Below, piece by piece: positions 5,560 to 44,500 of a DNA stretch of 64,000 nucleotides (positions are counted from its first letter, which is position 1; every line of letters starts with the position of its first letter). The stretch comes from a virus. Position numbers and translations under genes: made by a program. The notes beneath the pieces are model-generated. The model did not search any database, was not told where the DNA came from, and saw nothing but the letters and a program-made list of their open reading frames with translations. The DNA is taken from the IMG/VR virus record IMGVR_UViG_3300045988_174665; one strand, given 5' to 3'.

Positions 5560-6624
5560 ATGTCTATTGTTTTAGATGAAACTCAAAAAGAAATTGTAGA
5601 AACAACATCTGATAGAGTTTTAGTAGTTGCGGGTAGTGGCTCTGGAAAAACCAGAGTTGTAACCGAAAGAATTAAATTTTTATTAGATAATAATGTTAAT
5701 CCAAAAGGAATTGTAGCAATTACTTTTACCAATGCAGCGGCTGAAGAAATGAGAGAGCGATTGGGTGAAAAAGCTAAAGATGCCTATATTGGTACTATTC
5801 ATTCCTATGCTAATAAACTATTGATAAAAAATGGTATCAGTACAGCGAAAGCAATAAAAGAAGAAGATTTTGATGGATTTTTTGAACTTATTGAAGATAA
5901 TCCCCAAGTATTGGAACCTGTTGAATATCTATTTGTTGATGAATTTCAAGATATAAATACTGCTCAATATATTTTCCTTATGGATATGATTAATGCGGAT
6001 AATTTTTTCGCCGTTGGTGACGATTATCAAAGTATTTATCAGTGGAGAGGTTCTAAGCCAAAATATTTCTTTAATTTAGCTAAAGACCCTAATTGTACTG
6101 TATATTTTATGAGCAATAATTATAGAACTGGATATAATATTGTTGATTTTGCTTTAGGCTTTTTGGAACCAGTTAAGAATAAAATTCCAAAAAATGTTAA
6201 ATGCTTGAACCCAAATCACGGGAAAGTCATCGAAAGAAAATCCTTAGATTTGAATTATTTATATCTAGCAATTCAAAAAGATAAAGAATATGGGAAGTGG
6301 TTCATTATAACCAGAGCAAACTCTCAAATTGATGAAGTAATGCGTTTCTTAAATAGAAATAAAATACCTTGTGATACTTTTAAAAAGGGAGATTTATCAA
6401 GCGAACAGTTGCAGAGAAAGCTAAAAGAAAATACTGTAAAGGTCTTAACTGCTCACTCTGCAAAAGGTTTAGAAAATGATTATGTTGCGGTTATGGGAAT
6501 TTCTCCTTATTCAGATGCAGAGCGAAGATTAGCCTATGTAGCAGCCACCAGAGCAAAAACTCTTCTAATTTGGCATTATTCTATAAAGGGAAAGAGAAGA
6601 AAATATATGAATAATTGGGAATAA
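5560..6624 (+). CDS. compact UvrD/PcrA-like SF1 helicase
   Basis: Start at MSIVLDE (AAAGGTGA SD). The track's longer ORF spans the terminator and promoter. Motifs: AGSGSGKTRV, ITFTNAAAEEM, VDEFQD, GDDYQSIYQWRG, NYR, TAHSAKGLE, YVAATRAK. Confidence 0.9.
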   Translation: MSIVLDETQKEIVETTSDRVLVVAGSGSGKTRVVTERIKFLLDNNVNPKGIVAITFTNAAAEEMRERLGEKAKDAYIGTIHSYANKLLIKNGISTAKAIKEEDFDGFFELIEDNPQVLEPVEYLFVDEFQDINTAQYIFLMDMINADNFFAVGDDYQSIYQWRGSKPKYFFNLAKDPNCTVYFMSNNYRTGYNIVDFALGFLEPVKNKIPKNVKCLNPNHGKVIERKSLDLNYLYLAIQKDKEYGKWFIITRANSQIDEVMRFLNRNKIPCDTFKKGDLSSEQLQRKLKENTVKVLTAHSAKGLENDYVAVMGISPYSDAERRLAYVAATRAKTLLIWHYSIKGKRRKYMNNWE

Positions 6625-6641
6625 AGGAAAGGTGAAGTATA

Positions 6642-8117
6642 GTGGATATAAAAGATTATGGAATCAATGAAATAGAAACCTTGTCCTTTAAGGACGGAGT
6701 TAGACAAAGAATTGCAATGTATTTGGGTTCAGCGGATATGCAAGGCGTTTATAATGCTATTCAAGAAATTATTTCTAATAGTATTGATGAATATTATATG
6801 GGCTTTGGTAATAAAATAAATATTAGTCTTGGTCCAGACAATATAATTGTGATTACAGATGAGGGTAGAGGAATTCCCTTTGGAATTAAAGAAGACGGCT
6901 CTAATGTCCTTGTTGATATTTTTTCTCGACCTCATACTGGTGGTAAATTTAATGATAAGGTTTATAATAGCGTAGCGGGACTAAATGGTATTGGTGCGAA
7001 AGCAACTTGTCTTTCTTCGTTAAAATTTAATGTAAGCGTTGTTAGGGACGGTCGTCATGCGACAGCTAGTTGGGAAAAGGGAAATCTTATTGACTATAAA
7101 GAAGAAGACTGGACAGATAAGCAACAACACGGTACTTCTATTCAGTTTTCCCCAGACCCAGAAGTTTATAATCTTGAACCAATTAAGATTGATTTTAATG
7201 TTTTATGTGAAAAATGTAAAAATCTTTCTTACTTAACAAAAGGACTTACTTTTGAATTAGAAGATGAAGATAAGAAAGTAGTTTATTGTGCAAAAAGAGG
7301 ACTACTTGATTTAATTAAAGATAATGTTAAAAACCCTATTAATAAAACTCCTGTTTATTTTGAAATGGAAGAAGGAGAAAATAAGGTAGAAATAGCGTTA
7401 CAGTGGACTAAAGATAAAGAAAAAAACTTTACCTTTACTAATGGACTGGAAAATATTGAAGGTGGTACTTCTTTAACAGGAATGAAGACTGCTATTACAA
7501 CCTTTATGAAGAAACAATTTAAAGGCGAATTTAACGGTGATGTGGCTCGAACTGGTCTTGTATATGCCGTTTCTTGTAAAACTCCTAATCCAAGTTTTGC
7601 GAATCAAACGAAAACTAAAATTAATAATCCAGAACTGAGAGGATTAACTCAAAGAGCTACAAATCAAGCCTTATTTGATTTCTCGGTTCGTAGACAGGAA
7701 GAATTCGATAAGGTAATCGACTTTCTTGTAAAAGAAAGAAAAGCAGAAATGGCGGCGGAAAGAGCGAGAAAAAAGTTTCTTGAAGCTGGTAAAGATGTAG
7801 AAAAAAATCAGAAAAGAAAAGTATTTGCTTCTGATAAATTAAAAGATGCTGAATTTTTGGGACAAAATTCAATTTTAACAATTGTAGAAGGAAATTCAGC
7901 TATGGGTGGCTTATCGAGAGCCAGAGATTATACTAAATATGGTCTTTTTGCAATAAGGGGTAAACTTCTTAATTGCTTATCTAACCCAGAAGAAAAAATC
8001 TTTCAAAACGAAGAAATTAAAATTCTTCTGAGTGCATTAAATATAGTGCCGGGAAAGTATGATAGTAAAAAATTAAGATACGGAAAGTTAGCTATCTGTA
8101 CTGATGCGGACTCGGAT
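6642..8117 (+). CDS. type IIA topoisomerase subunit B (GyrB/ParE-like), exon 1
   Basis: GTG start with AAAGGAAAGGTGA. GHKL ATPase boxes present (EIISNSIDE, DEGRGIP, GLNGIGAKA) and TOPRIM VEGNSAMGG. It ends inside the TOPRIM acidic motif (ICTDADSD). The in-frame RK-stop after 8117 is intron sequence. Confidence 0.85.
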
Positions 8118-9204
8118 AGAAAATAGAAACTGTCCGAAAACGCTTTACTCTTAACCAAGAGGGTCTACATATAAAAGTAAGGATGGATTACATATAGATG
8201 TAGGCTAACGGTATCAGCGAAATAAGACCTCTCATTGAAACCAAAAGAGATAATGAGACGTATGTCCAAGGACGAATAAGCTGACTAAGAAACCCTAAAC
8301 CTGAGATATGGTGAGATAAAGGGAATACCGTGGGAATCAGAATTAATCCATTCCTTCTATTAAAAGGAGGAAATTGAAATGATAGGTATTTATAAAATAA
8401 CTAAAAAAGAAAATGGTAAATCTTATATAGGACAATCTAACGACATCAAAAGAAGAATTAAAGAGCATCAATATAAAAGTGATATTCCTATTGACCTAGC
8501 AATACAAAAATATGGAATAGATGCTTTTAAATATGAAATAATTGAAGAGTGTTCTTTAGATAAATTAAACGAAAAAGAAAAATATTGGATAGCATATTAC
8601 AATACATATAAAGGATTTGGTTATAACTGTGCTGAAGGCGGCGGAAACAACAGGTGTGAAAATAATGGAAGAGCTAAATTAACTAATGAAGAAGTTAGTT
8701 ATATTAGAGAATGTTATGATTTACATATGCGTCGTAATGAAGTTTATCAAAAGTTTAAAACAAAGATTTCTTTTAGTACTTTTGCTAGTATATGGGATGG
8801 TACTACTTGGAAAGATATTAAACCAGAAGTTTATACCGAAGAAAATAAAAAATATTATATGTATGAAGCTACCAGTGGTGAAAAATCAGAAAATGCTCAT
8901 CTTACAAAAGAAGAGGTCATTGAGTGTCGAACAAGGTATGTACAAGAAACAGCCAAAGAAATATATAAAGATTACCAAGAAAAGATAACATATCAAGCTT
9001 TTCAAGCTATGTTATGGGGAAGAACTTATAAAAATCTGCCTATATATAGCAAGAAAAAGAAAAAATGGATTAATAAATGAAGCCTGTAACGACTATCTCC
9101 GTGAAGGAGAGTACAATTACTATTGGTACGTAATTGGAAAGAGCGTTCTTATAATTTTATAAGTAAAATATAGTCTGAGCCATTTCGAAAGAGTGGAATA
9201 ATCG
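8118..9204 (+). mobile_element. group I self-splicing intron (ORF-containing)
   Basis: Joining 8117 to 9205 restores TDADSD|GYHIGLL. The 5' exon ends in U and the intron ends in G. Intron GUCCGA (8132-8137) pairs with exon UCGGAU (8112-8117), giving a U.G wobble at the splice site. Hairpins at 8148-8161, 8165-8203, 9096-9110 and 9114-9136, plus long-range pairing 9091-9096/9170-9175. Confidence 0.8.
8379..9080 (+). CDS. GIY-YIG homing endonuclease (intron-encoded)
   Basis: IGIYKITKKENGKSYIGQSNDIKRRIKEHQ...KEKYWIAYYN matches the GIY...YIG...R...H/E...N module. Has its own SD AAAGGAGGAAA. The basic C-terminal half is consistent with a DNA-binding region. Confidence 0.85.
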   Translation: MIGIYKITKKENGKSYIGQSNDIKRRIKEHQYKSDIPIDLAIQKYGIDAFKYEIIEECSLDKLNEKEKYWIAYYNTYKGFGYNCAEGGGNNRCENNGRAKLTNEEVSYIRECYDLHMRRNEVYQKFKTKISFSTFASIWDGTTWKDIKPEVYTEENKKYYMYEATSGEKSENAHLTKEEVIECRTRYVQETAKEIYKDYQEKITYQAFQAMLWGRTYKNLPIYSKKKKKWINK

Positions 9205-9585
9205 GGCTATCATATCGGTCTTTTAATAATGGCAGCAATGCTCTATCTTGCTCCAGATTTTATAAAAGAGGGAAGGTTATATTGGCTAAGAGCACCGCTG
9301 TATATAGTAAAAAATAAAGGAAAAGAAAGTTATTATTACACCGATGAAGAGTTTAATAAAGTAAGAAACACAATCAAAGGCGAAATAACTAGAAATAAGG
9401 GTCTTGGTGAAATGGATGCTGAATCGGCTAAGAAATCTATGTTTGAAGAAGAGCATCAAAGATTGGACCAGATTACCTATGATGATGAAGCTATTCGGCT
9501 TCTCCAAGAATTAATGGGTAGTGATGTCGAACCAAGAAGAAAATTTATTTTTAACAATATAGACTTTTCTACAATTAGAGAATAA
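9205..9585 (+). CDS. type IIA topoisomerase subunit B, exon 2
   Basis: The frame is open from 9202 and reads GYHIGLLIMAAMLYLAPDFIKEGRLYWLRAPLY. This matches GyrB D-G-xHI-xxLLLTFF...G..Y...PPLY. The track ORF 9229..9585 is only the part after the first ATG. Confidence 0.85.
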   Translation, partial: GYHIGLLIMAAMLYLAPDFIKEGRLYWLRAPLYIVKNKGKESYYYTDEEFNKVRNTIKGEITRNKGLGEMDAESAKKSMFEEEHQRLDQITYDDEAIRLLQELMGSDVEPRRKFIFNNIDFSTIRE

Positions 9586-9592
9586 AAATATC

Positions 9593-9625
9593 AAGAGAAG
9601 AAAATTTGTTTTTTCTTCTCTTTTT
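9593..9625 (+). terminator. rho-independent terminator
   Basis: 12-bp stem AAGAGAAGAAAA (9593-9604) / TTTTCTTCTCTT (9611-9622) followed by T residues. Confidence 0.65.
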
Positions 9626-9634
9626 ATATATAAT
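9606..9634 (+). promoter_or_regulatory. sigma70-type promoter for the topoisomerase A gene
   Basis: TTGTTT (9606-9611, in the terminator loop), 17-nt spacer, TATAAT (9629-9634). Confidence 0.45.
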
Positions 9635-9666
9635 ATTAATATAATAAAAAAGAAAGGAGAAATAGA

Positions 9667-12018
9667 ATGGCTGACTTTAAAAAAATTATTGAAGAAAGTT
9701 TTATTCAATATAGTGGGGCAGTATTGCAATCCCGTGCTTTAATTGATGTTAGAGATTGTATTAAACCTTCCACAAGACAAATTTTGTATGCATTATATAC
9801 TGATAAATTTACTAGTAATAAACCTTTTAAGAAAACCTTGAAGGCGGTAGGTTCACTTTCTCGTTTTTATATTCACGGCGATGCCTCAGCTGTAGGAGTA
9901 TTAATGCGTTCAGGGCAGAACTTTTCAATGAGATATCCTTTAATTTCTGTTAAAGGTAATGTTGGTACTTTAATGGAAAGTGGAAACTGGGCAAGTCAAC
10001 GATACACAGAATCAAGGTTATCACCAGTATCCGAGCAGTTGTTTACTGATATTAATAAAGATACTATAGAAGATTGGCGAGATAATTACGATAATACCGA
10101 AAAATATCCTGCTGTTTTGCCCTCAAAAGGATTTTATAACATAGTTAACGGTACTCTCGGAATCGGAATAGGAGCAGCATCAAGTATCCCTCCTTTTAAT
10201 TTAACGGAGGTTAATACCGCTTTAATTAAATTACTATGGAATCCAAATATCCCCTATGAAGAAATTTATTGTCCTCCAGATTTTCCAACGGGTGGAACAA
10301 TCTTAAATGAGGATGAGGTAAAAGAATCTTTAAAAAAGGGTACAGGTTTTGCTTGTAAAATTAGGTCAAAAATTGAATATGACAAAAATGAAAAGATTCT
10401 AACTGTCAAAGAAATTCCTTATGGTGTTTATACTAATACTATTTCAAAAGAATTGGAAACTATTTTGAATAGTGAGGATAATCCCGGTATTGACAGATTT
10501 AATGATTTAACTGGTCTTACCCCTTTAATTAAAATTTATCTAACTAAAAAGGCTAATGTCCAAAAAGTATTAACTTATTTATATAAAAATACTTCATTGC
10601 AATCTTTTTATGGAATTAATATGACTATGCTTAAAGATGGTCGTTTTCCACAGGTTTTTGGTTGGAAAGAAGCATTAACTGAATTTCTTAAACATCAAAT
10701 CTCTGTTTATACTAAAGGTTTTGAATACGATTATAAAGTAATTTTAAATAAAATTCATATCATTGAGGGACTTTTAAAAGCAATTTCTATCATTGATAAA
10801 GTCATCGCTTTAATTAAATCTTCTTCAAGTTCTAAAGTTGCCTCTGAAAATTTACAGAGTCAATATGGTTTTTCTAGTGAACAGGCACAAGCTATTTTAA
10901 ATATTAAATTAGCTCGATTAGCTCATTTAGAAGTTAATAAACTGGAAAAGGAAAGAGAAGATTTAAAAATAGAGTTTAATCGTATTAAAGATATTTTACA
11001 GAATCCAGATTTATTAAAAAAGGAAATTGAAAAAGACCTCCAACAAGTTATGAATAAATACGGAGATAGCAGAAGAACAGAATTGCTAAATGTAGAAAAA
11101 GAAAATGAAGAACCGGTTGATGTTAAATCTTTGATTATTAATTTAACAAACCAAAATTCTTTATTTGTTTCTGAAAACTCTTCACTTTTTTCTCAGAAGC
11201 GTGGCGGCGTTGGTAATAAATTCAAGTTAAATAAAGGAGAGTATATTTTATCCACCATTTCGGCAGAAAATGTAGATAATCTATTGTTATTTAGTAATAA
11301 AGGTATGGTTTATAACACCAATTTAAATCAATTGCCTTTGGAAGAAAAAATTCCAATAGAATCAATTTGTTCAATTCCCTCTTCTGAAAAAATTAACTGT
11401 ATTGTTAATCTAAATAAAAAGACTGAAAATAAGAATATAATTTTCTTTTCTAAGAAGGGGATGTTAAAAAAATCTTTACTTTCTGAGTACAATATGAAAA
11501 GAAAAAATGGATTAAAGGCTTTAGAATTAAATAAGGAGGACGAGCTATGTTCTACTTTAATTTTAAATGATGAAAAAGTTGGTCTTTTAACTTCCAATGG
11601 AAATTTTCTATATTTTTCTACAAAAACCGTAAATCCAGTTGGTAGAATAGCTAAAGGTGTAAAATCTATAAAATTAAACGATAATGATTTTATAGTGTCA
11701 GCAAAAATTATTCCTAATGCAACCGATTACTTAGTTAGTATTTCAAATAAAGGGTTGATTAAAAAGACTGATTTTTCCGAATTTAGTATTGGTTCAAGAT
11801 ATACTAAGGGAGTAAAAATTCAGAAGAACAAAGAAGAAGATAAAATGGCGGATTTTCTACCTGTTTTTAAAGAAGATAAAAGCGTTATTATCACTTCTAC
11901 AAAAGCACAAATTAAAATAGACACTTCTGAAATTTCTACTTTAGGTAAAGGAACTTATGGAAATAAATCTATAAAAATGCCATTAGAAGATAAAATTGTT
12001 AGTTTAACAAAATTTTAA
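9667..12018 (+). CDS. type IIA topoisomerase subunit A (GyrA/ParC-like)
   Basis: QSRALIDVRDCIKPSTRQILYAL N-terminal signature; catalytic Tyr context ASQRYTESRL. C-terminal repeat region includes the GyrA-box-like QKRGGVG. Confidence 0.92.
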   Translation: MADFKKIIEESFIQYSGAVLQSRALIDVRDCIKPSTRQILYALYTDKFTSNKPFKKTLKAVGSLSRFYIHGDASAVGVLMRSGQNFSMRYPLISVKGNVGTLMESGNWASQRYTESRLSPVSEQLFTDINKDTIEDWRDNYDNTEKYPAVLPSKGFYNIVNGTLGIGIGAASSIPPFNLTEVNTALIKLLWNPNIPYEEIYCPPDFPTGGTILNEDEVKESLKKGTGFACKIRSKIEYDKNEKILTVKEIPYGVYTNTISKELETILNSEDNPGIDRFNDLTGLTPLIKIYLTKKANVQKVLTYLYKNTSLQSFYGINMTMLKDGRFPQVFGWKEALTEFLKHQISVYTKGFEYDYKVILNKIHIIEGLLKAISIIDKVIALIKSSSSSKVASENLQSQYGFSSEQAQAILNIKLARLAHLEVNKLEKEREDLKIEFNRIKDILQNPDLLKKEIEKDLQQVMNKYGDSRRTELLNVEKENEEPVDVKSLIINLTNQNSLFVSENSSLFSQKRGGVGNKFKLNKGEYILSTISAENVDNLLLFSNKGMVYNTNLNQLPLEEKIPIESICSIPSSEKINCIVNLNKKTENKNIIFFSKKGMLKKSLLSEYNMKRKNGLKALELNKEDELCSTLILNDEKVGLLTSNGNFLYFSTKTVNPVGRIAKGVKSIKLNDNDFIVSAKIIPNATDYLVSISNKGLIKKTDFSEFSIGSRYTKGVKIQKNKEEDKMADFLPVFKEDKSVIITSTKAQIKIDTSEISTLGKGTYGNKSIKMPLEDKIVSLTKF

Positions 12019-32580: not shown

Positions 32581-35500
32581 TTATCTTATGATTTCATTAA
32601 GTTGTTTTTGTAATATATTTATGTCTGTTGTAATATTATTTAATTGGTTTTGAGTCGTAAGTGAAGAAGAAACATTTGAATAATTACCCGTGCCATATTC
32701 TACATTTTTTATGGTTGCAGCCATTCTTTGGAATAAATCTTCGTAATCAGTTCTATAATTTTGAATAGTAATTTTAGTTTCAGCAGGGTTATCTAAATTA
32801 TGATTAATCTCAGATACAATAACTTCTTCTTTATAAGGAGTTATTTTTTCTTCATCTGACCAACCAAAAAATTCAGTATCTTCTATAAAGGTTTTATCTC
32901 TAATCTTAAAATCATATAGTTTAAATTCTGGTAAGGCAGAAATTTCTAAAGCATCAATTGTATAGCTGACTTTAGGAAAAGCATTTTCTCGTGCCTTTTC
33001 TATTGCTGAGAAATAATATATATTATCATCCATAAAGTCTTCTGACATCCAAGTTCCTTCTTGAATAAAGGCAGCATATTTATCATAGAAATCTCGTAAA
33101 ATTTTAACTTTTTGTTGGCTAATCGAATTAATTGAAGTTAAAATGCTATTATAATTTTTGCGTGCTGTAGTGTACTTATTATTATAATCTCTGTAGATAC
33201 GCTTATAAGCGGGAATTAATTTTTTATAATATTTAATAGTTTCTATGTAGCTAGTAAATAGTTTGTTGTTTTTAAATTCTTTAAAATAAGAATCATTGTT
33301 TTTAGTCAGGTAGTTGGAATAGCTTTTACCAGTTAGTTCATAGAAATTATTATAGTATTCTGTTAATAGTTTATTTATATTATCTACACCAAGTTTATAA
33401 GTTTCAACCATAGCTAAATACTTACTTTTTAAAATGCTATAAGTACCCAGATTTTTACTGTATTGTCTATTATTATTATTTAATTGTCTTAATAAATAAC
33501 AACAATTATCATAATTCTTTAAAAATAGTTTTTTTGAAATTAATCCTTGGTTAATATAATAAGACAAATCTAATATAAAGTTTTCTCCAATCGGATTGTT
33601 TTCAGCTCTTGCAATAGAGCAGAATCCATTCTCTCCATATTCATTAGAATTACTTTTTACTATTAATTTTGTAGAAATATTAGAAGAATCTATCGACCTT
33701 TGAATTGATTTTAAGTTAATACCATATTTAAATCCTGCATTATTAACTTGATACTGTTTTCTTTTAAAATATAAATATTTTAAAGGTTTATAAGTTTGTG
33801 TGTCATATTCTATATCACCCCGTTCAGAATGAAGAATCTCAAAATCCATCCAACAATCAAAAGTTTCGCATAGTTTTAGTAAGATATCATAAACATTGCT
33901 TTCTGTTGCAACAATTGAATTTTTCTTTTCGTAGGTTAAATCAATTTTAGGAATAAAGCTTGGGTCATCATAATATCCTTTATATTCATAAATCATTTTA
34001 TTAGCTTCGATAACTCCCTCATTATCACCGGGATTAAAATAGTAATAAATTGTATTATTTACATTGTCATTAACTTCTGAAGGATAAATTAAATTACCGT
34101 CCTTATCTCTATATTCTTTAAACAACTGACAATCTGCAATTCCGACATAAGATTCTCCACCTGCGCTATAAACTACATCTCCAAGTATGAATAATCCAAA
34201 ATTATCCTTAATCAAATCAGAATATTCTAAATTACCATATTTTGAGTCATCATAATGATAATCTCCAAAAGCCACTAAATCATAAATTCCATATATTCCT
34301 TCACCTTTGACTGTTGATGTCTGAGTAAAACCTGATACATTCCAAATATTAGACATTATTAATAAATCTATCATATCCTCGTGAGGAATACCAGAAACTT
34401 CTTTAGTTAACCCCTTTGTTTTTGACCAAGTTGTGGAAGTATCCCTGTTATAATTTTCTTTATAGGCGTATGTGATATTTGTAGCGTGAGTTTTAGGATT
34501 ATAAAAAGAGTAATTATTAAAAATTCTAAACCCGTTATAGCTTAAACTCTTAGAAGTACTATCGTTCCATAAAGATTCTAAAGTAGTTTTTCTTTCTCCA
34601 TTTACATCATATCTAAAATAATTTTCATTCCAAATAATCATATTAATTGGAGAAAAATAATATTGTTTTCCATCTTGAGGAAAAGTATAGGTAAGTTTTG
34701 TATTTTTATTATTTATTAATTCTTGAAGAGTCCATTCTCTTAAATTTAAACCGTCCTTCGGCTTTTGTCCAGTATAGTCTCCATATCCACTAAAATACTT
34801 AATCATCTCTCTGCCCGGACCTTCTTCTCTAGAAGTTAATATATAAGCTATTCTACTAGTATCTGGGTCTCGCGGATTATATTCTGTGCCAGAGGGGAAA
34901 TTTACTTGTTTAATAAAATTAACGGCATTACTTTCTGTACTCCAATAATTAGCTAAATATCTTTGCACAAAAAATAATGGCGCCCCACCATCTTTTAATA
35001 CAGTATTATTATAATATACAGGCACAAGTGAATTTGTATATATATCTTTTTCTGAGGCTAAATTATTAGTATCATTATTAAAAGAGATATAAGGAGTTAT
35101 TAAGTTCTCTTTAGACTCATTTAAGGCAGCGTTTTCTATATTACTATTATATTTTGCGATAACTGGATGTAATAAATTAAGTGGTAACATATCATTATTT
35201 AAAACAGATATAGATAGAGCATATTTGTCACCCTTATTAAGTTGATTTATAGTATAACTATAATCAGAAAAACCAGTATTATACAAACAAGGAAAATAAA
35301 ATCTATTATATCTACTATGCAAAGTATTACCAAATAATTTCCAGTTTAAAATAGGAACTTCAGAAGCTTTTCTTGTTAATGCAGCATCTTTAGTTTTAAT
35401 TCTTGAAGTTAAATCTAAAGAAATTAAATTGGTAACTGCTGTTTTTCCATTTTGATTACATGTATCTAAAGTTTTCCAACCATCAGTAGAAATAAAATTA

Positions 35501-37509
35501 TTAGGATTAGTAATATAATTCTCTACTAATGGAGTAGCTTCATATTCTTTTTCTTGGTAACCATAATATGTTGTATTGCCCTTAGTATATAAATCACAGT
35601 ATTTATCTAATAGGGGATAATATCTTTTCTCTTGTGGGGAATAATATCTATCAGCTCGGTACAATAGATTTAGAGTGTAAGATAATATTAAAAAAGAACT
35701 ATTTTTAGTAGGAATTACAATATCATTATTTTTATAAGTAACATCACTAATCATATAATAATTTTGATTAGATATTTTATTACTACTTTCTAAAGGTGGG
35801 TCATCAAGATAATAAATACAAGACAAAGTATTTTTTTTAGCAGATACCTCTCCGTAGAAAAAGCATAATTTTCCTTCAGGCTTTAGATTAAGTGTTGTAT
35901 CTTCAAAAATTAATTGTCCTTTATTATTTAATTCACATTTTTTACAATTAATTGTATAAATTCCTTCTGGAATAGTAGCAATATAAATGTTATCTTCTAA
36001 GGTTTGAACCAAAAAATCTGATTTTGTTTTGTTTAAACTATAGTTCGTTTCTTGTATTGCCCGCTCTGCCAATTCAAAAATATTTCCTGTGTTATTTTCC
36101 AATTCTGTATTGTAAGTAATATTAAACCCTACCTTAGAAAGTTCATTTTTAATAAGGCTTTCTGCTTGGTAAGTAATCTTATAATTTTCAGTCATTTCGC
36201 TGATGTTTTTAATTATAAAATCATACCACTTATCTTTATATTTAAGTTTTACTTTTCTTTCATTAATTAAAAGAGGTAAATATGGGTTATCTATTAATTT
36301 TCCCGTTTTATTATCATAATATTTAGCATAGATAGAGAAAGTTAAAGTATTATCTTCATTTTCTTTTAGAGATAAATTACAATCAAATGCTGCGGCTGGA
36401 TTATTAGTATCTGCATCTTTTAGAGTACAAAGTTTGTTTTCTTTTATAAATGTATCTGGCTGATTTAATGGGGTAAATAGTAAATCAGTGATAGTTAGAT
36501 TGTCTAAAGCAGAAGAAATAGAATTTTCAGTTTCTCTACCTATTAATAATAGAAAATCTCCTTCTAACTTATAAGGGGTACACCAACCAATAAAAGTCTC
36601 GGGAAGGACAAAAACAGAATCTGTTCGTGGGCCAATACCCATTCTTTGCCAAAGACCAATGCGACGAGAATAACTACTGTTTAAACTAACAGTATCAATA
36701 ACGATATCAAAATTAAAAGTTTGGTTAAATACATCTCCTGTAGTTTGTAAAGATTGTAGCCAAAGTGATTGTTCACTATTTTCCCCGTTTTTCCAAACAA
36801 TATTTTGTTCTCCGGCTGAAACCATTGTTGTCATAGAGTCATCTGTGTATTGGATTAATTTAATTGAAGTAGCAGTCTTTCCTTCATTAGAAACCTTAAA
36901 ATAATATTTTGGAGGGATTATATCTTCCAGTGCATGAGAGCCTTTTTTAAATGAACCATCTTTAAAGAAGCTAACTAATTTATCTGTTCCAACTGGTTTT
37001 TGCAAATATAATTGTAATGTAAAGCCAAAAGAAGAGCGTGGGTCATCCAAAGTAAAATTATTTAATTGATAAATTACTCCATCTAAAGGAGTATTAGGTC
37101 GATACCCAACCTCAAGGCCCCTACTAATTTTATCCCACTCTTGTTGTGATAAAAATTGCCCAGTGGTAATTTTAAAATTTTTACATCTTAAAAAGATTTT
37201 ATGCCTTTTTTGTGGCTGTATCCAATAACTAGTAGTTCCTAAACCTTTTGCATAGGTTTTCAAAAAACTAAGGGAATATGATTGTGGAACTTCCGTAATG
37301 ATGTGACTAGACCCATATAAAGCTTCTTTTTTATTAATCATTTCAGGAGGATTTTTTTGAAATTTAAACTTATCATGAGTTGTAATAGGTTCTAAATAAT
37401 AACTTAAATCATTCAAGTCACTATAATATCCTTGACATATGTTTATATAATCATAATCTGTAGGCTTTTCCACATTTTCCCACAAACTAATCTCATATTC
37501 ATTATTCAT
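32581..37509 (-). CDS. tail tip / baseplate hub protein (Tal-like minor structural protein) with large extra domains
   Basis: Follows Dit. Internal region NTLTFSIYAKYYD...VKLKYKDKWYDFIIKNISE...YQAESLIKNEL and C-terminal EGTWMSEDFMDDNIYYFSA...FPKVSYTIDALEIS resemble conserved blocks of siphophage Tal/anti-receptor proteins. 1642 aa. Confidence 0.65.
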   Translation of the reverse strand: MNNEYEISLWENVEKPTDYDYINICQGYYSDLNDLSYYLEPITTHDKFKFQKNPPEMINKKEALYGSSHIITEVPQSYSLSFLKTYAKGLGTTSYWIQPQKRHKIFLRCKNFKITTGQFLSQQEWDKISRGLEVGYRPNTPLDGVIYQLNNFTLDDPRSSFGFTLQLYLQKPVGTDKLVSFFKDGSFKKGSHALEDIIPPKYYFKVSNEGKTATSIKLIQYTDDSMTTMVSAGEQNIVWKNGENSEQSLWLQSLQTTGDVFNQTFNFDIVIDTVSLNSSYSRRIGLWQRMGIGPRTDSVFVLPETFIGWCTPYKLEGDFLLLIGRETENSISSALDNLTITDLLFTPLNQPDTFIKENKLCTLKDADTNNPAAAFDCNLSLKENEDNTLTFSIYAKYYDNKTGKLIDNPYLPLLINERKVKLKYKDKWYDFIIKNISEMTENYKITYQAESLIKNELSKVGFNITYNTELENNTGNIFELAERAIQETNYSLNKTKSDFLVQTLEDNIYIATIPEGIYTINCKKCELNNKGQLIFEDTTLNLKPEGKLCFFYGEVSAKKNTLSCIYYLDDPPLESSNKISNQNYYMISDVTYKNNDIVIPTKNSSFLILSYTLNLLYRADRYYSPQEKRYYPLLDKYCDLYTKGNTTYYGYQEKEYEATPLVENYITNPNNFISTDGWKTLDTCNQNGKTAVTNLISLDLTSRIKTKDAALTRKASEVPILNWKLFGNTLHSRYNRFYFPCLYNTGFSDYSYTINQLNKGDKYALSISVLNNDMLPLNLLHPVIAKYNSNIENAALNESKENLITPYISFNNDTNNLASEKDIYTNSLVPVYYNNTVLKDGGAPLFFVQRYLANYWSTESNAVNFIKQVNFPSGTEYNPRDPDTSRIAYILTSREEGPGREMIKYFSGYGDYTGQKPKDGLNLREWTLQELINNKNTKLTYTFPQDGKQYYFSPINMIIWNENYFRYDVNGERKTTLESLWNDSTSKSLSYNGFRIFNNYSFYNPKTHATNITYAYKENYNRDTSTTWSKTKGLTKEVSGIPHEDMIDLLIMSNIWNVSGFTQTSTVKGEGIYGIYDLVAFGDYHYDDSKYGNLEYSDLIKDNFGLFILGDVVYSAGGESYVGIADCQLFKEYRDKDGNLIYPSEVNDNVNNTIYYYFNPGDNEGVIEANKMIYEYKGYYDDPSFIPKIDLTYEKKNSIVATESNVYDILLKLCETFDCWMDFEILHSERGDIEYDTQTYKPLKYLYFKRKQYQVNNAGFKYGINLKSIQRSIDSSNISTKLIVKSNSNEYGENGFCSIARAENNPIGENFILDLSYYINQGLISKKLFLKNYDNCCYLLRQLNNNNRQYSKNLGTYSILKSKYLAMVETYKLGVDNINKLLTEYYNNFYELTGKSYSNYLTKNNDSYFKEFKNNKLFTSYIETIKYYKKLIPAYKRIYRDYNNKYTTARKNYNSILTSINSISQQKVKILRDFYDKYAAFIQEGTWMSEDFMDDNIYYFSAIEKARENAFPKVSYTIDALEISALPEFKLYDFKIRDKTFIEDTEFFGWSDEEKITPYKEEVIVSEINHNLDNPAETKITIQNYRTDYEDLFQRMAATIKNVEYGTGNYSNVSSSLTTQNQLNNITTDINILQKQLNEIIR

Positions 37510-38516: not shown

Positions 38517-41500
38517 TTATCTCATAAAACTTATAGCGTTGACATTTCTATATCTTGCATCACTAGCAATAGATTTTTTTACTTGTTTTGCCAACTGTTC
38601 TACATCATAATCTTTCTCAATTTTATCTACATTTATGTTAACTTCTACATTAACATCTCCAGTAGATTGAGAAGGAATACTATTATTATTATTATTATTC
38701 TTCATTACACTAGATAACACTTCTTTTAGAGTTAAGAAATTTTGTGTATCTTTTGCGTTTAATATTAACTCTGGAGAACTCTTAGTACCATCTAACCAAG
38801 CTGGACCAGTAAAGTCTGCTAGACCACCTTTTTTATATTGAGGAACTGACTTGATGGCAGAAGATTTAAACCATCCAGTATATCCCGAAGTTTTGTGGTG
38901 TCTAACTAAAACATAACCATTCTGTTCGCTAAGTACAATATAATTAGGGTCATAATCAAAATATTGATGACCGCCGCCTTGTCCAGAAGAATTTGCATAA
39001 ATTCGAGTATTTGGGTCAACTTTAATTTTACTACCAACCCTATATTTTTTATTGTTAGAATTAGAACCTTGTTTTTTGCTTGAAGTAGAATTAGTTTTCT
39101 TACTTGTAGAAGTTTTAGTCCAATTTCCTCCAGTTTCTAAAGTTCTAAAGGTTCTACCATCGGGCATTAAGAATACATCATTATAAGTTGTGTAGCCTCC
39201 TTTACCCTTTACTCTAACACTACCATCTGATTGAATAACTCCAGTTTGTTGCTTACCATTACCATCAGTAAAAGTAATACCTTGACCGCCATAATAGCCT
39301 AATTTTTCGAGTTGCCTATCTTTTGCGTAGGTACTAATAGATATCTTAGCTGATTGTTCAAGAGTGTCTAACCAATCCATTTTTTGCATTGAAGATAAAC
39401 CAGAAAAAGTATCTTCTTTCTTTAACAATTTTTCTAATTCACTACCTTTTAATAACGCCCCAGTGGCAGTAGTTCCTTTGTTGATTAAAGTATAAACTTC
39501 ATTCCAATATTTACCTTCGTTTTTAGCAACATCTAATTGTGCCTGCATTATACTGATTTGAGTTTGACGTTGGTCAGAAGCTTTCTCGTTTTGTTGTTCT
39601 ATCTCACTCAATCTTTGGTCAATCAAATTATCAGTATAATCTTGTTCTTGATTAGTTAATTCTTCCTGTAATTGTTTTATAGCTAATTCGTTTGAACCCG
39701 AAGTATCTAATTGTAGATAAGCTAATTGTCTTTCTTTATCAGTAATTTCTTTTTCTGTTTTTTGATTATTGCGGTCTTGACGAATTTTATCTAAATTCTC
39801 TTGAATTGCACTCATCAAAGCATCATTACTATTATTAATAGTTTCATCTAAATTAGATAAGTTATCAATAATCTTTTGTTCTCGATTTAAAATAGCGTCA
39901 TAAACACGCTGTTCAAAATCCATCGTGTCTTCTCTACCTTGCTCTTCAAGTTCCTTTAAAGTATCAGTATATTCGTCAATTGCATCTTCTGCATCATTCA
40001 TAGAGTCTTGAAGTTCTTCCAATTTGGAAATATATTCTTCTATTCTATCCCCCAAATCATTATCAGTAACTCTATTAATATTGCCCCAATTAATTTCAAT
40101 TGTATTGTCTTTCCAGTTGTAAGCTGCGTATTTTTTAAGGTCAGAGTTCCAAGAAACAGTATCTTTGATTTCTTGTTTACGATTTACATACATTTGTTGT
40201 TGTAATCGTATTTCTTCTTCAAGAACTTTAACTTGACTTTTATAGTTTTTATAAATATCTTTTGCTGTTGATTTCCTATTCTCTAAAAGTCGGTCATATT
40301 TCTTTTCAAGTTTTTCTCTTTCCCTTAGTTTCGCATTAATATCAGCAGTTAAGTTATAAAGCCAATCATATGTATTTTTCCAAGGTTCTTCTTCTTTTGC
40401 AGAGGAAGACTTTTTTGTTGACGACTTTTTAGTCGAAGCCTTTTTGGTTGAGGCTTTTTTAGTTGAAGTATCGTAATCAGAAGTTTGACCTTCTTTTCTT
40501 TCATATCCACGAGCAAAACTAAAGAATTTTTGCTGATGACTTCCCTTTAAAATATCTTTGGTTTCATCAGCAGGGAAAATAACATCATCTTTATTAACTT
40601 TTGTAATTTCTGGGCCTTTCGCTCCCAGAAGTTTAGCTTCACCTTTTTTATTATAAGATAGCTCTGGACCTTCTTCACCAACCAAAGCATTGGAAGAAAC
40701 TGGAGCTTTTTTAGTTCCTTGGGCAAAAGACCAACCTTTTCCCGTTGAAAAAGTAGGGGGTTTATTTAAGTTGATTCCAAAAGTATTGGATAGAACTTTA
40801 CCGAATTGTTGAGGTGGTCCTTGTACTTCTAGGCTTTCATTATTTAAAATTTGATTTAACAGCTTAGCGTCTTCAATACAGTCTAAAATGGCCTGGTCTA
40901 TATTATTTCTAATATTAGTTCCCGCCTCACTAGTATCGACCGTAGTAAAACTATCTGTAATGGCTTGAGCATAAATAGTTGCGTCGGCTTTTGTTTGAGC
41001 TTCTTCTAAAGTTTTAGCAACCCCATTTTCTTGAACTTCAGTCAGCTCTAAATCATAACCCTTTAATTCAATTGTGCCATCTTTATTTTCTAAGTTATCA
41101 ATTTGTTTTTCTACTGCTTCGTAAATTAAATCATCTTTAACCCCTAAAGAAGAAAAGGTATTAACAAGTTCATCTAAAGAAGCTTTACCATTAATAAAGG
41201 GGTCTAGCCCTCTATTTTTCTTACCCCAAATTTCTTCCATAAGGGACTGGACATTTTTAAGTTGAGTTTCAGTATCGTCGTCGCTACCCAAATCAAAAAT
41301 TTTTATTTCTCCAGAATCTTTGATTCTTTTTTTAATGTCTTCTACGGTAGTTAATTTATCAATATTGATATCTAACTCTTTAGCTAAATCTTGCCATACT
41401 GTTAACTCATCTTTTCCATAAAGTTTACCATAATTAGTTAAATCTTTTGTATTGATAATAGTTTGTGTTTGTGTCTTTTGAACTTTTTCAACTGAACCAC

Positions 41501-44500
41501 TACCTACTTTAGTTTTCCATTCATTTTCTAAAGTACTAATTTGATATTCACTTTTCTTTAAGAAATCAGACCAACCTGCGGCATAATCATTCTCTCTTAA
41601 TTCTTGAGCTAAATCTCCAGAATAATTTTTAAAATCAGTGAGCATCATTTTAGCATATTCTTCGGTAACATTATAAGATTTAGCAATTTTTTTAACTACT
41701 TCATTAGTTGAAAATTTTCCGACATCTAAATCAATACTACCATTAGAAAGTAAAGATACTCCTAGCCCCTCTTTCTTTAGAGCTTGAGCATAATCGCTAT
41801 TTGTTGCCAAATCTTTCCAAGCACCATAAAGATTATTATAAAGTTTCTTTAACTTCTCTCCATAAACTTTAGTTGCTTTTTCTAAATCTTTATTAGCGGC
41901 TTTTTCAAAATCTTCACCAAAGAATAGGTCTAAATAGTTATATAATTGTGTATTACCATAAGCCCCTTCTTTAAGCCAATTGGCAACTTTTTCAACAATA
42001 TCATTAACTTTATCCCCAACCTCTCCTTCATCAATACCGGGGTCAAAATTGTCTAATAAATCAACTGATTCAGCTACTACATTATTTAACTGTTGAGTGC
42101 TATCTGCCAATTCTAACAATCCATTAGTTACATCCTCAATTCCTAAATCACCAGAACCAACTGCCGCAAGCGTATCTGCTAAAGTTTGGGCTGCTATATC
42201 TGTATTTTCTAAAACATTTTGAAGTTCAGTAGATTCTTCGGCATATTCTTCCACTTTAGAAGCAGTTATTTTATCGCCTTTTTTAAGGGTCTTAACAATG
42301 TCTTTCTGTATATCTTCAAAACTACTAGCTTTAAAGAATTCCTGCATTTGAGCACCGACACCATATGCTACTTGACCTACTTCTGCCATACCCTTAGCAA
42401 CTTTTCTAATTTCCTTGTTACTACTTGCTAATCCCTTTTTAATTGCAGTAGCACCCTCAATAGCGCTATCCCAATTAACATTTTCAAGGGTTGAAGAGAA
42501 TTTATCCATATATTCTTTAATGTATTTATCAGATTTATTAGATAGTCCATCAAAAACAGTGGATATTACTGAAGTAGTCCCTTTTTCTCCAAATTTTTTC
42601 AACAAAGTATTTTCAAAATTAGTTATAGAAGAGGCTTGTTGAGCGTTTAATTTTTGAATTACAGCGGAATAACTATTTAATCTTTTTTGGGTATTGTCAT
42701 TTTCAGTTGCTTTTATAGCTGTACCAAATAGTTGCTTTTTTTGCCGTAATTGCGTAGTATGTATATCGGTCTTTGCTTGCTCAAAAGCTTGAGTTAATTC
42801 TTCTACGGTTGTACCCATTTCAGAGGCTAGTTCACTTGCACTTTTATCCATTTTTTTCAAATAGGTATCAAAATTATCTAGTTTATTATAATCTAAAGTA
42901 GTATCTCGATTTAAAATTCCAATAAACTCTTTCTGGTCAGTTAATGCCATCTTAGAAATTGCCTCATAGGCATTATTTATATATTTTTGATAATTTTCGC
43001 CCACTTGTTGTGATGCTAATTGAAATCTCATCGCATCTTCTTCCATATCAGAAGCGATTTTAGAGATATCTCCACCGTAGAAAGCATCTGCATATTTTTT
43101 CTTTAGGTCGTCTCCGCCAACGCTATCAAGGTCTCTTTTTGCCTTTTCTACCTCTTCCTGTAAGTTGCCACTTATTTGAGATAATCCATTAGCTAATCCT
43201 TCTGATAAGCCAGAATTTTGTAAAGCGTCGCTAATCCCTTGTAACATTGTAGTTTTAATAGCAGAGGTATTTAATTGGTCTTTAGCCTCCTTCGCTAATC
43301 TACTTCCTTCAAAGTCAGCAGAACCATCTACACTTTTATAAGTAGCTGCAGAGCCACCACCTGCTGCTATTTTATCATTTAATGGAGAAAAAATATTTTT
43401 ATTTAAATCGGCTAGCATTGCTTGAATACTGTTAGCACTATAGGTAACACCATTAATTGTCAAATCTTTAGTATTAGCCTGAACCCAATTCCATACATCA
43501 GTTGATGTGTTTTCTAATCCAACTGCCGAATCTTTTAAAAGGTTTTGTTCTTCAACACTACGGTCGGTTGATGCCTGAGCCTCCTTTTTTATAGCTTCCA
43601 ATAAAGAATTATATTTTTCATAGCCTTCTTTAAAAGTTGCTCCCTCTTCAAGCGTCATTCCAGAATCCGAAAGCCCATAAACTTTTTCTCTTGCTGCACT
43701 TTCTTTTTCATTAATGTCTTTTTGCTGTTTTAAAAGTTCGGTATATTGAGAGCCAACAAGAGTGGAAGTTTGTAATTTAGAAACTTTTTCCCCTTCTTCT
43801 TTAAGAAGTTCATTTTGCCCCTCTTCATTTAAAGTTAACAGACCAGATTTATCAGTAGTAATATATTTGGCTAATTGAGGATAAGTTTCAAGCAACTTAA
43901 CAACTTCTTCATTAGCTTTAATTAATTGGTCCTTCCATTCACTTGTGCCAACTGTTAAATCTTCTAAAGATTTAACTATTTCATTATAATTATCAAAAGA
44001 TTCCTGTAAATCATCATAAGCCGTTTTCGCATCGTTAGCAGCTTCTTTAGAATCTTTTAAGGCTTGGGTGGCTTGCTCAATTTTATATTCAATTGAAGCT
44101 TTTTTAATTGCATCGGCAATCCACCAGATGGCTCCAGCTATAGCTGCTAGTCCTGCTAAAACCCAACCTACTGGCATTGATGCTATAGCGGCATTTAAAA
44201 CTGAGGTCGCACTTGCTGCACCATTGGCAGCAATAGCCTCTACCTCTTCTGCCGAAGCTAATCCTAAAGATTGCATTATTGCTAATCTTTTTGCTTTATT
44301 ACAGAATAGTAATGCTGCATAAGACCTTGCTTTTATACCAATACCAACATTTTCTTGATTATTTTCTGCGATTAAGTTTAAGAAATAACGCTTAGAACCA
44401 TCAGATAATTCATCATTAAGACTTATTCTCTCTGATATTTTTGCGGTATCTTTATTTAAATAAAGAAGAGATTGTTTATTGGTGTCAAGTCCTAACTTTT

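Follow-up and report, generated by a model that had tools for sequence, protein, structure and literature searches.

Group I introns that carry homing endonuclease genes have been described in the T4 genes nrdB and nrdD, the DNA polymerase gene of SPO1, orf142 of Twort and in staphylococcal and lactic phages, where they interrupt conserved motifs of replication and nucleotide-metabolism genes, are often of the IA type and undergo endonuclease-mediated homing. The element described here belongs to these well-known phage group I introns with GIY-YIG endonucleases, its closest described system being the td intron of T4 with the endonuclease I-TevI. It is located in a stretch of 64,000 nucleotides (nt) from the IMG/VR virus record IMGVR_UViG_3300045988_174665, which will be denoted as the window. 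There, residues 8118..9204 are very probably a functional, mobile, td-like group I intron in the gene for a type IIA topoisomerase B subunit. An earlier note, made from the sequence of this DNA without database searches, had interpreted the insert at this position as a group I intron harbouring a GIY-YIG endonuclease gene; the proposal is sustained by an intronless allele, by covariation within a family of related introns, by relatives that resemble the Rfam model RF00028 and by the similarity of the core to that of td.

A second T4 precedent concerns the host protein rather than the RNA. At genes 39 and 60 an endonuclease-linked element (mobA, with the 50-nt bypass) likewise disrupts a phage GyrB-like subunit, albeit at a different protein position. 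In T4 the split is permanent and leads to two polypeptides and the gene 60 bypass, whereas in the window RNA splicing would lead to one mRNA and one polypeptide. The td host gene, encoding thymidylate synthase, is also a phage DNA-metabolism gene in which a conserved catalytic motif is interrupted. The other phage introns listed above differ from the window intron in family, target and sequences.

In the window, the GyrB/ParE-like open reading frame (ORF) 6642..8126 ends with ...LAICTDADSD-RK-stop, two codons past the TOPRIM DxDxD motif, of which DADSD forms the terminal residues of exon 1. From position 9205 onwards the window reads GYHIGLLIMAAMLYLAPDFIKEGRLYWLRAPLY, which shares the frame of ORF 9229..9585 and precedes the first ATG of that ORF; the exon 2 frame starts with GYHIGLLIMAAM..., and eight codons precede the ATG at 9229. 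Joining of 8117 to 9205 results in an open frame of 618 amino acids (aa) with the Pfam domains HATPase_c, DNA_gyraseB, Toprim and DNA_gyraseB_C, HATPase_c scoring 26.3 bits and thus marginally below its cut-off of 26.4. The joined protein aligns with ParE from S. pneumoniae (4juo_C, E 1e-79) without a gap over the junction, where 'klaictdadsdgyhig' is matched to 'kiiimtdadtdgahiq'. The claims of the earlier note that a GyrB/ParE-type ORF is halted inside its acidic motif and continues in frame at 9205 are hence borne out by translation, Pfam domains and the ParE alignment, and the comparison of the joined product with solved ParE/GyrB that it had proposed as a check gives a match uninterrupted at the junction. 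Downstream, 9667..12018 encodes an intact GyrA/ParC-like subunit as partner of the B subunit.

If the insert is read through, a TAG stop codon is encountered three codons into it and more stops follow in that frame; RNA left unspliced encodes only a truncated product of 494 aa. This bears on alternative ways of removing the insert, namely protein splicing as an intein, translational bypass of the T4 gene 60 type or splicing as a group II intron. Inteins do occur in some bacterial GyrB genes and the T4 bypass spans 50 nt, but the early stop and the many further in-frame stops contradict both an intein, which the earlier note had rightly excluded, and a bypass, for which 1087 nt are moreover far beyond any known case. 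What the insert encodes is a GIY-YIG nuclease, read in another context than the host protein, and a group II intron is contradicted by the lack of an encoded reverse transcriptase and of any group II model match in Rfam. The chance that one of these explanations holds is negligible; the sequence already refutes them.

The exact extent of the insert follows from an intronless allele. Scanning viral contigs with the joined protein yielded 58 homologous loci (related sequences are cited by L numbers where required). In L001 (IMGVR_UViG_3300045988_164799) the gene runs continuously through the insertion site, which reads ...GATGCTGACTCAGAC|GGCTATCAT without intervening sequence, ...GACTCAGAC directly abutting GGCTATCAT. 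Because L001 is continuous there, the insert comprises exactly 8118..9204, i.e. 1087 nt. Along 5.5 kb on the upstream side of the site and 4.4 kb on the downstream side, the DNA of L001 is 96.8-97.1% identical to that of the window. The absence of the insert from such a near-identical phage therefore marks it as a mobile element that was gained or lost recently, rather than as a part of the gene. The proteins are 99% identical, with both exons differing almost solely synonymously.

The differences are unevenly distributed around the site. The 43 nt that immediately precede the site (window 8075-8117, L001 5434-5476) contain 8 differences, all silent, and the next 117 nt contain 0, the background rate being 3.2%. 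One of the 8 affects the last exon base, which is T in the window (the U of the U.G pair) and C in L001; in the stretch around the spliced-exon junction of the window, ...GACTCGGAT|GGCTATCAT, 4 silent differences from L001 are found. Judged from sequence comparison, this cluster, the only indirect sign of cleavage of the intronless allele by the endonuclease, would fit either co-conversion during homing or escape of L001 from the endonuclease or from P1 pairing. The related locus L053 was considered as donor of a co-conversion and rejected, since by eye only about half of the 8 window-specific silent changes match.

The features of the locus are compiled in the following table.

Table. Exons, intron helices and endonuclease gene of the topoisomerase B locus (window numbering).
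Feature	Position	Strand	Remarks
Exon 1, gyrB/parE-like gene	6642..8117	+	492 codons; 3' end GAT GCG GAC TCG GAT
Group I intron (very probable)	8118..9204	+	1087 nt, td-like (IA2-like); insertion relative to L001, family covariation, RF00028 on ORF-less relatives
P1	8112..8137	+	exon UCGGAU 8112-8117 with guide GUCCGA 8132-8137
P3, 5' strand AACGCUUU	8139..8146	+	partner 9140-9147, pseudoknot
P3.1 hairpin CUCUU-AACC-AAGAG	8148..8161	+	between P3 and P4
P3.2 hairpin GGUCUACAU...AUGUAGGCU	8162..8206	+	GAAA cap in short members
P4 ACGGUAU 8208-8214 / AUACCGU 8325-8331	8208..8331	+	encloses enlarged P5 arm
P6 UCA	8337-8339	+	partner UGA 9078-9080, the endonuclease stop codon
P6a AUUAAUCC	8342-8349	+	partner GGAUUAAU 9067-9074, formed by last endonuclease codons
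Hairpin UUCCUUCU / AGGAGGAA	8351..8372	+	RNAfold; can mask the Shine-Dalgarno sequence of the endonuclease gene
GIY-YIG homing endonuclease gene, 233 aa	8379..9080	+	in P6a loop; Pfam GIY-YIG
P7, 5' strand GACUAU	9091..9096	+	preceded by J6/7 GUAAC; partner AUAGUC 9170-9175
P7.1 hairpin CUCC-GUGAA-GGAG	9097..9109	+	
P7.2 hairpin CAAUUAC-UAUUGGUAC-GUAAUUG	9114..9136	+	
P3, 3' strand AGAGCGUU	9140..9147	+	partner 8139-8146
P8 hairpin CUUAUA-AUUU-UAUAAG	9148..9163	+	
J8/7 UAAAAU, then P7 3' strand AUAGUC	9164..9175	+	conserved block AAAUAUAGUCU
P9.0 G9177-A9178 with U9202-C9203, P9 hairpin 9180-9196, terminal G9204	9177..9204	+	
Exon 2	9205..9585	+	126 codons plus stop; opens GGC TAT CAT = GYH

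The last exon base 8117 is T and the last intron base 9204 is G, and the wobble pair at the 5' splice site is U8117.G8132. The splice-site bases, the complementarity of the guide GTCCGA to TCGGAT and the junction U.G named in the earlier note were all confirmed, and the hairpins it had listed turned out to be true helices (8148-8161 is P3.1, 8165-8203 P3.2, 9096-9110 P7.1, 9114-9136 P7.2 and the long-range pairing 9091-9096/9170-9175 is P7). A complete group I core including the P3/P7 pseudoknot could be modelled. An initial hand model, in which UCAGA/UCUGA formed P7, AAGGAUGGAUU/AAUCCAUUCCUU formed P3 and the ORF lay within P8, was overturned by comparison with relatives and td, which places the ORF in P6a and identifies P7 as GACUAU/AUAGUC.

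From P4 onwards the order of the helices is that of the T4 td intron, namely P4-P5, P6/P6a, P7, P7.1, P7.2, P3', P8, P7' and P9.0/P9. In td the GIY-YIG gene is likewise located in the P6a loop, with its 3' end running into P6/J6-7. As seen from the td sequence (L103), the core blocks are nearly identical to those of the window, (GCCU)AACGACUAUC and AUAUAGUCU; td has GCCUAACGACUAUCCC and AGAUAUAGUCUGC where the window has GCCUGUAACGACUAUCUCC and AAAUAUAGUCUGA. The window block AAAUAUAGUCU aligns to AGAUAUAGUCU of td, and the P4 flanks GCUAACG and CGUGGGAA resemble CUAAACGGGG and CCCGUGCUAAA. Differences are observed in the 5' part and the periphery. Contrary to td, the window intron has no P2 hairpin between P1 and P3, the P3 5' strand beginning one nucleotide (A8138) past the guide; P3.1 and P3.2 separate P3 from P4, the P5 arm is enlarged, and P9.1/P9.2 are missing. 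With respect to subgroup IA2, P7.1 and P7.2 lie between P7 and the P3 3' strand in all members of the family, whereas the td-type P2 is absent. The lack of P2 and the two hairpins between P3 and P4 are the reason why the intron is termed IA2-like here and not typical IA2. As P3.1 is among the optional pairings of group I introns (PMC3873408), the intron represents a variant and not a new topology.

The family to which the intron belongs was gathered from viral contigs by means of the shared 16-mer GCCTGTAACGACTATC. This 16-mer is found in 44 viral stretches, about 35 of which contain the same element, and insertions at or beside the same site with ends resembling those of the window are also present in other loci of the joined-protein scan. 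Several copies (L064, L065, L073, L096, L075 and L081) are free of any ORF. In 185,579 representative bacterial and archaeal genomes (596 Gb) the 16-mer gives 106 matches, 0 of them with the family signature; these are chance matches, as expected for a 16-mer in 596 Gb.

The 3' domain was examined in a MAFFT alignment of 23 family members plus td against 500 shuffles and slid-register controls. Paired cells amount to 92.6%, as opposed to 73.6% in shuffles and 33-42% in slid registers, and double changes to 122 cells versus 31 in shuffles, the observed values being reached by 0/500 shuffles; the sequences are mutually related, and these figures are controls and not probabilities, a reservation taken up below. 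The covariation signal is nevertheless large and consistent across the helices despite this kinship. RNAalifold on the raw MAFFT alignment of the whole core returned a partial structure only, with the peripheral arms misaligned; an anchored per-helix extraction was used for P1, P3, P4, P6, P7.1 and P7.2.

P1 tracks the exon (GGAU/GUCC, CAGAU/GUCUG, (C)GGGU/GCCC(G), ACGCU/GGCGU, GAGGAU/GUCCUC, AAGGAU/GUCCUU), the guide following it also in relatives at other sites and in other genes. P3 covaries with 14 distinct strand pairs in 25 members, comprising 8 base pairs (bp) in most of them, with variants such as ACGC/GCGU, AUAC/GUAU, AUGC/GCAU, CUCC/GGGG, GUGCC/GGUAC, UAUCC/GGAUA, GUCUC/GAGAC and GUGUC/GACAC. 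The hairpins P3.1, P3.2 and P8 fold in every member with differing sequences: P3.1 is present in 25/25 members with compensatory pairs (CCGCU/AGCGG, CUGUU/AACAG, CCUAG/CUAGG, CUGAU/AUCAG), the P3.2 stem GUCNNN/NNNGGC covaries (CUAC/GUAG, CUUC/GAAG, CAGA/UUUG, ACGC/GCGU, CAUU/AAUG), and P8 shows double changes in 5/5 tested pairs. P4 occurs as ACGGG/CCCGU, ACGAGG/UCUCGU and ACGGAA/UUCCGU. In ORF-less members P6 closes locally (UCAC/GUGA, UCAUU/AAUGA, CUUAAAG/CUUUAAG), and L049 has a compensatory AACCC/GGGUU in P6/P6a. P7.1 exchanges compensatory pair types (UA/CG/GC and CG/UA/AU/GC), all 7/7 pairs of P7.2 show two-sided changes with 98.2% of the cells paired, and 4/5 pairs of P9 carry double changes. 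In most relatives P9.0 is formed by the 3 nt after AUAGUCU and the 3 nt before the terminal (U)G, with AAG/CUU, ACG/CGU, GUG/CAC and AAA/UUU read off the alignments, and a terminal G is seen in every relative whose 3' junction could be mapped. The P7 pair is invariant in the family and identical in T4 td.

Several observations weigh against the assignment, some of which concern detection by Rfam. When the whole window was searched at the gathering threshold, Rfam gave 0 matches, and RF00028 over 8000-9350 gave none at E values up to 10, where only chance CRISPR and snoRNA matches appeared; the covariance search of 8118-9204 that the earlier note had suggested as a check thus fails on the window copy itself. 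The 3' half of the intron alone reaches 9.2 bits (E 4.1), and even ORF-less relatives remain under the curated gathering score of 50 bits, L064 scoring 44.2 bits (E 2.8e-10) and L065 38.2 bits (E 1.8e-8). These two relatives align to the model end to end (model positions 1-253), P1, P4-P6, P7, P8 and P9 being placed alike, while P3 is mis-paired by the model and P7.1/P7.2 are counted as insertions. The shortfall is accounted for by the position of the ORF within P6a, by P7.1/P7.2 as insertions and by the displacement of the P3 strand, and the miss on the window copy is a limit of the model and not evidence against the intron. Further reservations are the kinship of the aligned sequences mentioned above and the nature of the support for P7, which comes from conservation and not from covariation because the pair never varies. 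P9.0 comprises just 2 bp in the window, and for P10 no convincing conserved pairing of the 3' exon with the region 5' of the guide was found. Splicing at 8117|9205 is what the chemistry of the family predicts, and the codon conservation of exon 2 described below may partly predate the arrival of the intron.

The 233-aa ORF within the insert matches PF01541 with 41.6 bits (cut-off 22.6) and is preceded at a distance of 8 nt by the Shine-Dalgarno sequence AAAGGAGG, in accordance with the earlier note, which had recognized a GIY-YIG ORF with its own ribosome-binding site. Its best solved relative is the catalytic domain of I-TevI (1LN0, E 1e-4); in the 1LN0/1MK0 alignment the GIY, Y(I/V)G, R(R)..H, E..W and GYN positions are all matched, and BLASTP gives 32% identity to I-TevI over residues 3-93. 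Past residue 93 BLASTP found no significant similarity to the C-terminal DNA-binding domain of I-TevI, which comprises a zinc finger, a minor-groove helix and a helix-turn-helix, and no Pfam domain was found in residues 100-233. Both phrog_7168 and phrog_314, annotated as 'homing endonuclease', match the 233-aa protein and I-TevI over most of their length. The Shine-Dalgarno sequence AGGAGGAA can pair with UUCCUUCU (8351-8358) just upstream, a hairpin that by analogy may be regulatory and recalls the sequestered ribosome-binding site of I-TevI. A 100-aa ORF in another frame within the endonuclease gene (8686-8988; 72 aa at the same place in L053) is probably a by-product of A/T-rich codon usage.

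Within the family the ORF is intact in about half of the relatives, frameshifted in L049, L058, L061 and L067, and absent from the ORF-less copies; intact, broken and ORF-less copies together represent all stages of the expected homing cycle. Such decay also has to be considered for the window, where the intron might be real but dead, with an inactivated ribozyme and a topoisomerase pseudogene. Besides the broken endonuclease ORFs of several relatives, L067, whose P7 contains AUAGCC and whose P7.2 has one additional G, illustrates that ribozymes of this family do degenerate. The window copy, however, retains every family-invariant core position, all helices and the intact 233-aa ORF, the gyrA/parC-like gene downstream is intact, and the exons carry the almost purely synonymous differences from L001 noted above, which makes inactivation improbable.

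A different possibility is that the gene is truly split by a free-standing endonuclease cassette, so that a polypeptide 1-494 and a piece starting with M9229 would assemble noncovalently. Precedents are gp39/gp60 of T4 and the NrdA halves of Aeh1, split by mobE. The topoisomerase large subunit is indeed split in T4-type phages, for which the gp39-gp60 structure has been solved (entry 8yo3), and ORF 9229..9585 exists as a mechanical ORF. In this arrangement, however, the metal-binding motif would be severed from the helix following it, and the insert holds a complete covarying group I core. Furthermore, the eight codons leading from the 3' splice site to ATG 9229, the G and H after DxDxD among them, are strongly conserved at the protein level. 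In 15 alleles with the intron they encode GxHIGLLx while making use of all synonymous codons, and they exhibit 485 synonymous versus 92 nonsynonymous codon differences, the latter confined to two positions. Since these codons are conserved and no Shine-Dalgarno sequence precedes ATG 9229, two separate polypeptides are very improbable indeed.

For the group I intron the following course of events is proposed. The gene would be transcribed through the intron and the RNA would fold into P1, the P3/P7 pseudoknot, P4-P6, P7.1/P7.2, P8 and P9/P9.0. Free guanosine would attack after U8117, the freed exon would attack after the terminal G9204, and the ligated mRNA ...DADSD|GYHIG... would encode the 618-aa GyrB/ParE-like protein. 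In a mixed infection the endonuclease, by analogy with I-TevI, would cleave alleles that lack the intron, for instance L001, close to the insertion site, and repair from the intron-bearing copy would transfer the intron together with some flanking exon into the cut allele.

Within the DxDxD motif three insertion sites are used, which lie 3 and 6 nt apart. The family is found after the second Asp (DxD|xDG) in L053, L058, L062 and L098, after the fourth codon (DxDx|DG) in L082 and L099, and after the third Asp (DxDxD|G) in the window as well as in L049, L061, L066, L067, L069, L077, L078, L086, L089, L095 and L102. A fourth site in the same gene, KG|LGE, is occupied in L004:5679-6746. Other members reside in recJ-like genes at GGH|ANAAG (L064:5358-5611, L073, L096), in dnaE-like genes at ...|SFxxSHTxAYS (L075, L083, L101) and in other genes (L065, L084, L080, L081, L100).

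The closest relatives of the window intron, L053 and L098, occupy the site 6 nt upstream and are 87-88% identical to it, whereas their flanking exons are only 65-72% identical to those of the window; the intron has therefore moved between distant phages. In a neighbour-joining tree of whole introns, calculated without bootstrap, copies from different sites are interleaved and the window is grouped with L053/L098, in agreement with the long P5 arm shared by them. In GAU GCG GAU UCG GAU the sequence CGGAU occurs twice, 6 nt apart, and the guide GUCCGA of the window and L098 fits both. As a tentative reading, held with less than even confidence, one ribozyme-endonuclease unit may have moved repeatedly (by 0, -3 and -6 nt) within GAY-NNN-GAY-NNN-GAY as well as to the fourth site, recJ and dnaE. 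Either guide-directed reverse splicing or slippage during repair at the 6-nt repeat could plausibly have produced the site shifts. If true, the family would offer a natural test case for studying how group I introns come to occupy new sites.

Two further introns were noticed in these loci. About 150 nt downstream of the family copy in L065, and apparently in the same gene, lies a second, unrelated group I intron (L065:1998-2225; RF00028, 87.8 bits). An intron of group I appearance, but of a different kind, occupies L052:5480-6613, where it interrupts a gyrB homologue at DAD|SDG, with classical P/Q/R/S-like blocks and its core located before a 279-aa phrog_4645 endonuclease ORF; Rfam reported no match for it at the gathering threshold.

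The window itself derives from a tailed phage and encodes a DnaE-type polymerase, DnaB, RecJ, NrdD, terminase, portal and a tape-measure protein. No further copies of the intron core were found within it. A megablast search of 6600-9700 against GenBank phages gave no match and blastn against the same set found no relative of the intron RNA core, the only short match being to the endonuclease gene of the crAss-like phage cr128_1; judging from these searches, there appears to be no close cultured relative among GenBank phages. The searchable literature yielded no account of group I introns interrupting gyrase or topoisomerase B genes of phages, nor of an intron at this site. New are the target site, the invisibility of the family to the standard model and the copies at adjacent sites. 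Elsewhere in the window, the tape-measure-like protein of 2883 aa is encoded on the minus strand (38517-47168), and a 1642-aa ORF (32581-37509) without PHROG match adjoins its gene.

The intron affects how such genomes are to be read. Gene callers would list three products, namely a GyrB cut short, an isolated endonuclease and a small orphan ORF, in place of the real product, which would be one 618-aa subunit, and the same misannotation applies to the recJ and dnaE homologues in related phages. As a widespread viral intron family is missed at the standard Rfam threshold, surveys of phage metagenomes undercount such introns. With regard to biology, the metal-binding DxDxD target is a further instance of the rule by which homing elements settle in those catalytic codons that are most conserved. 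Finally, the copies 3 and 6 nt apart and the silent cluster in L001 would provide substrates for addressing how such elements change their site and how targets escape from them.

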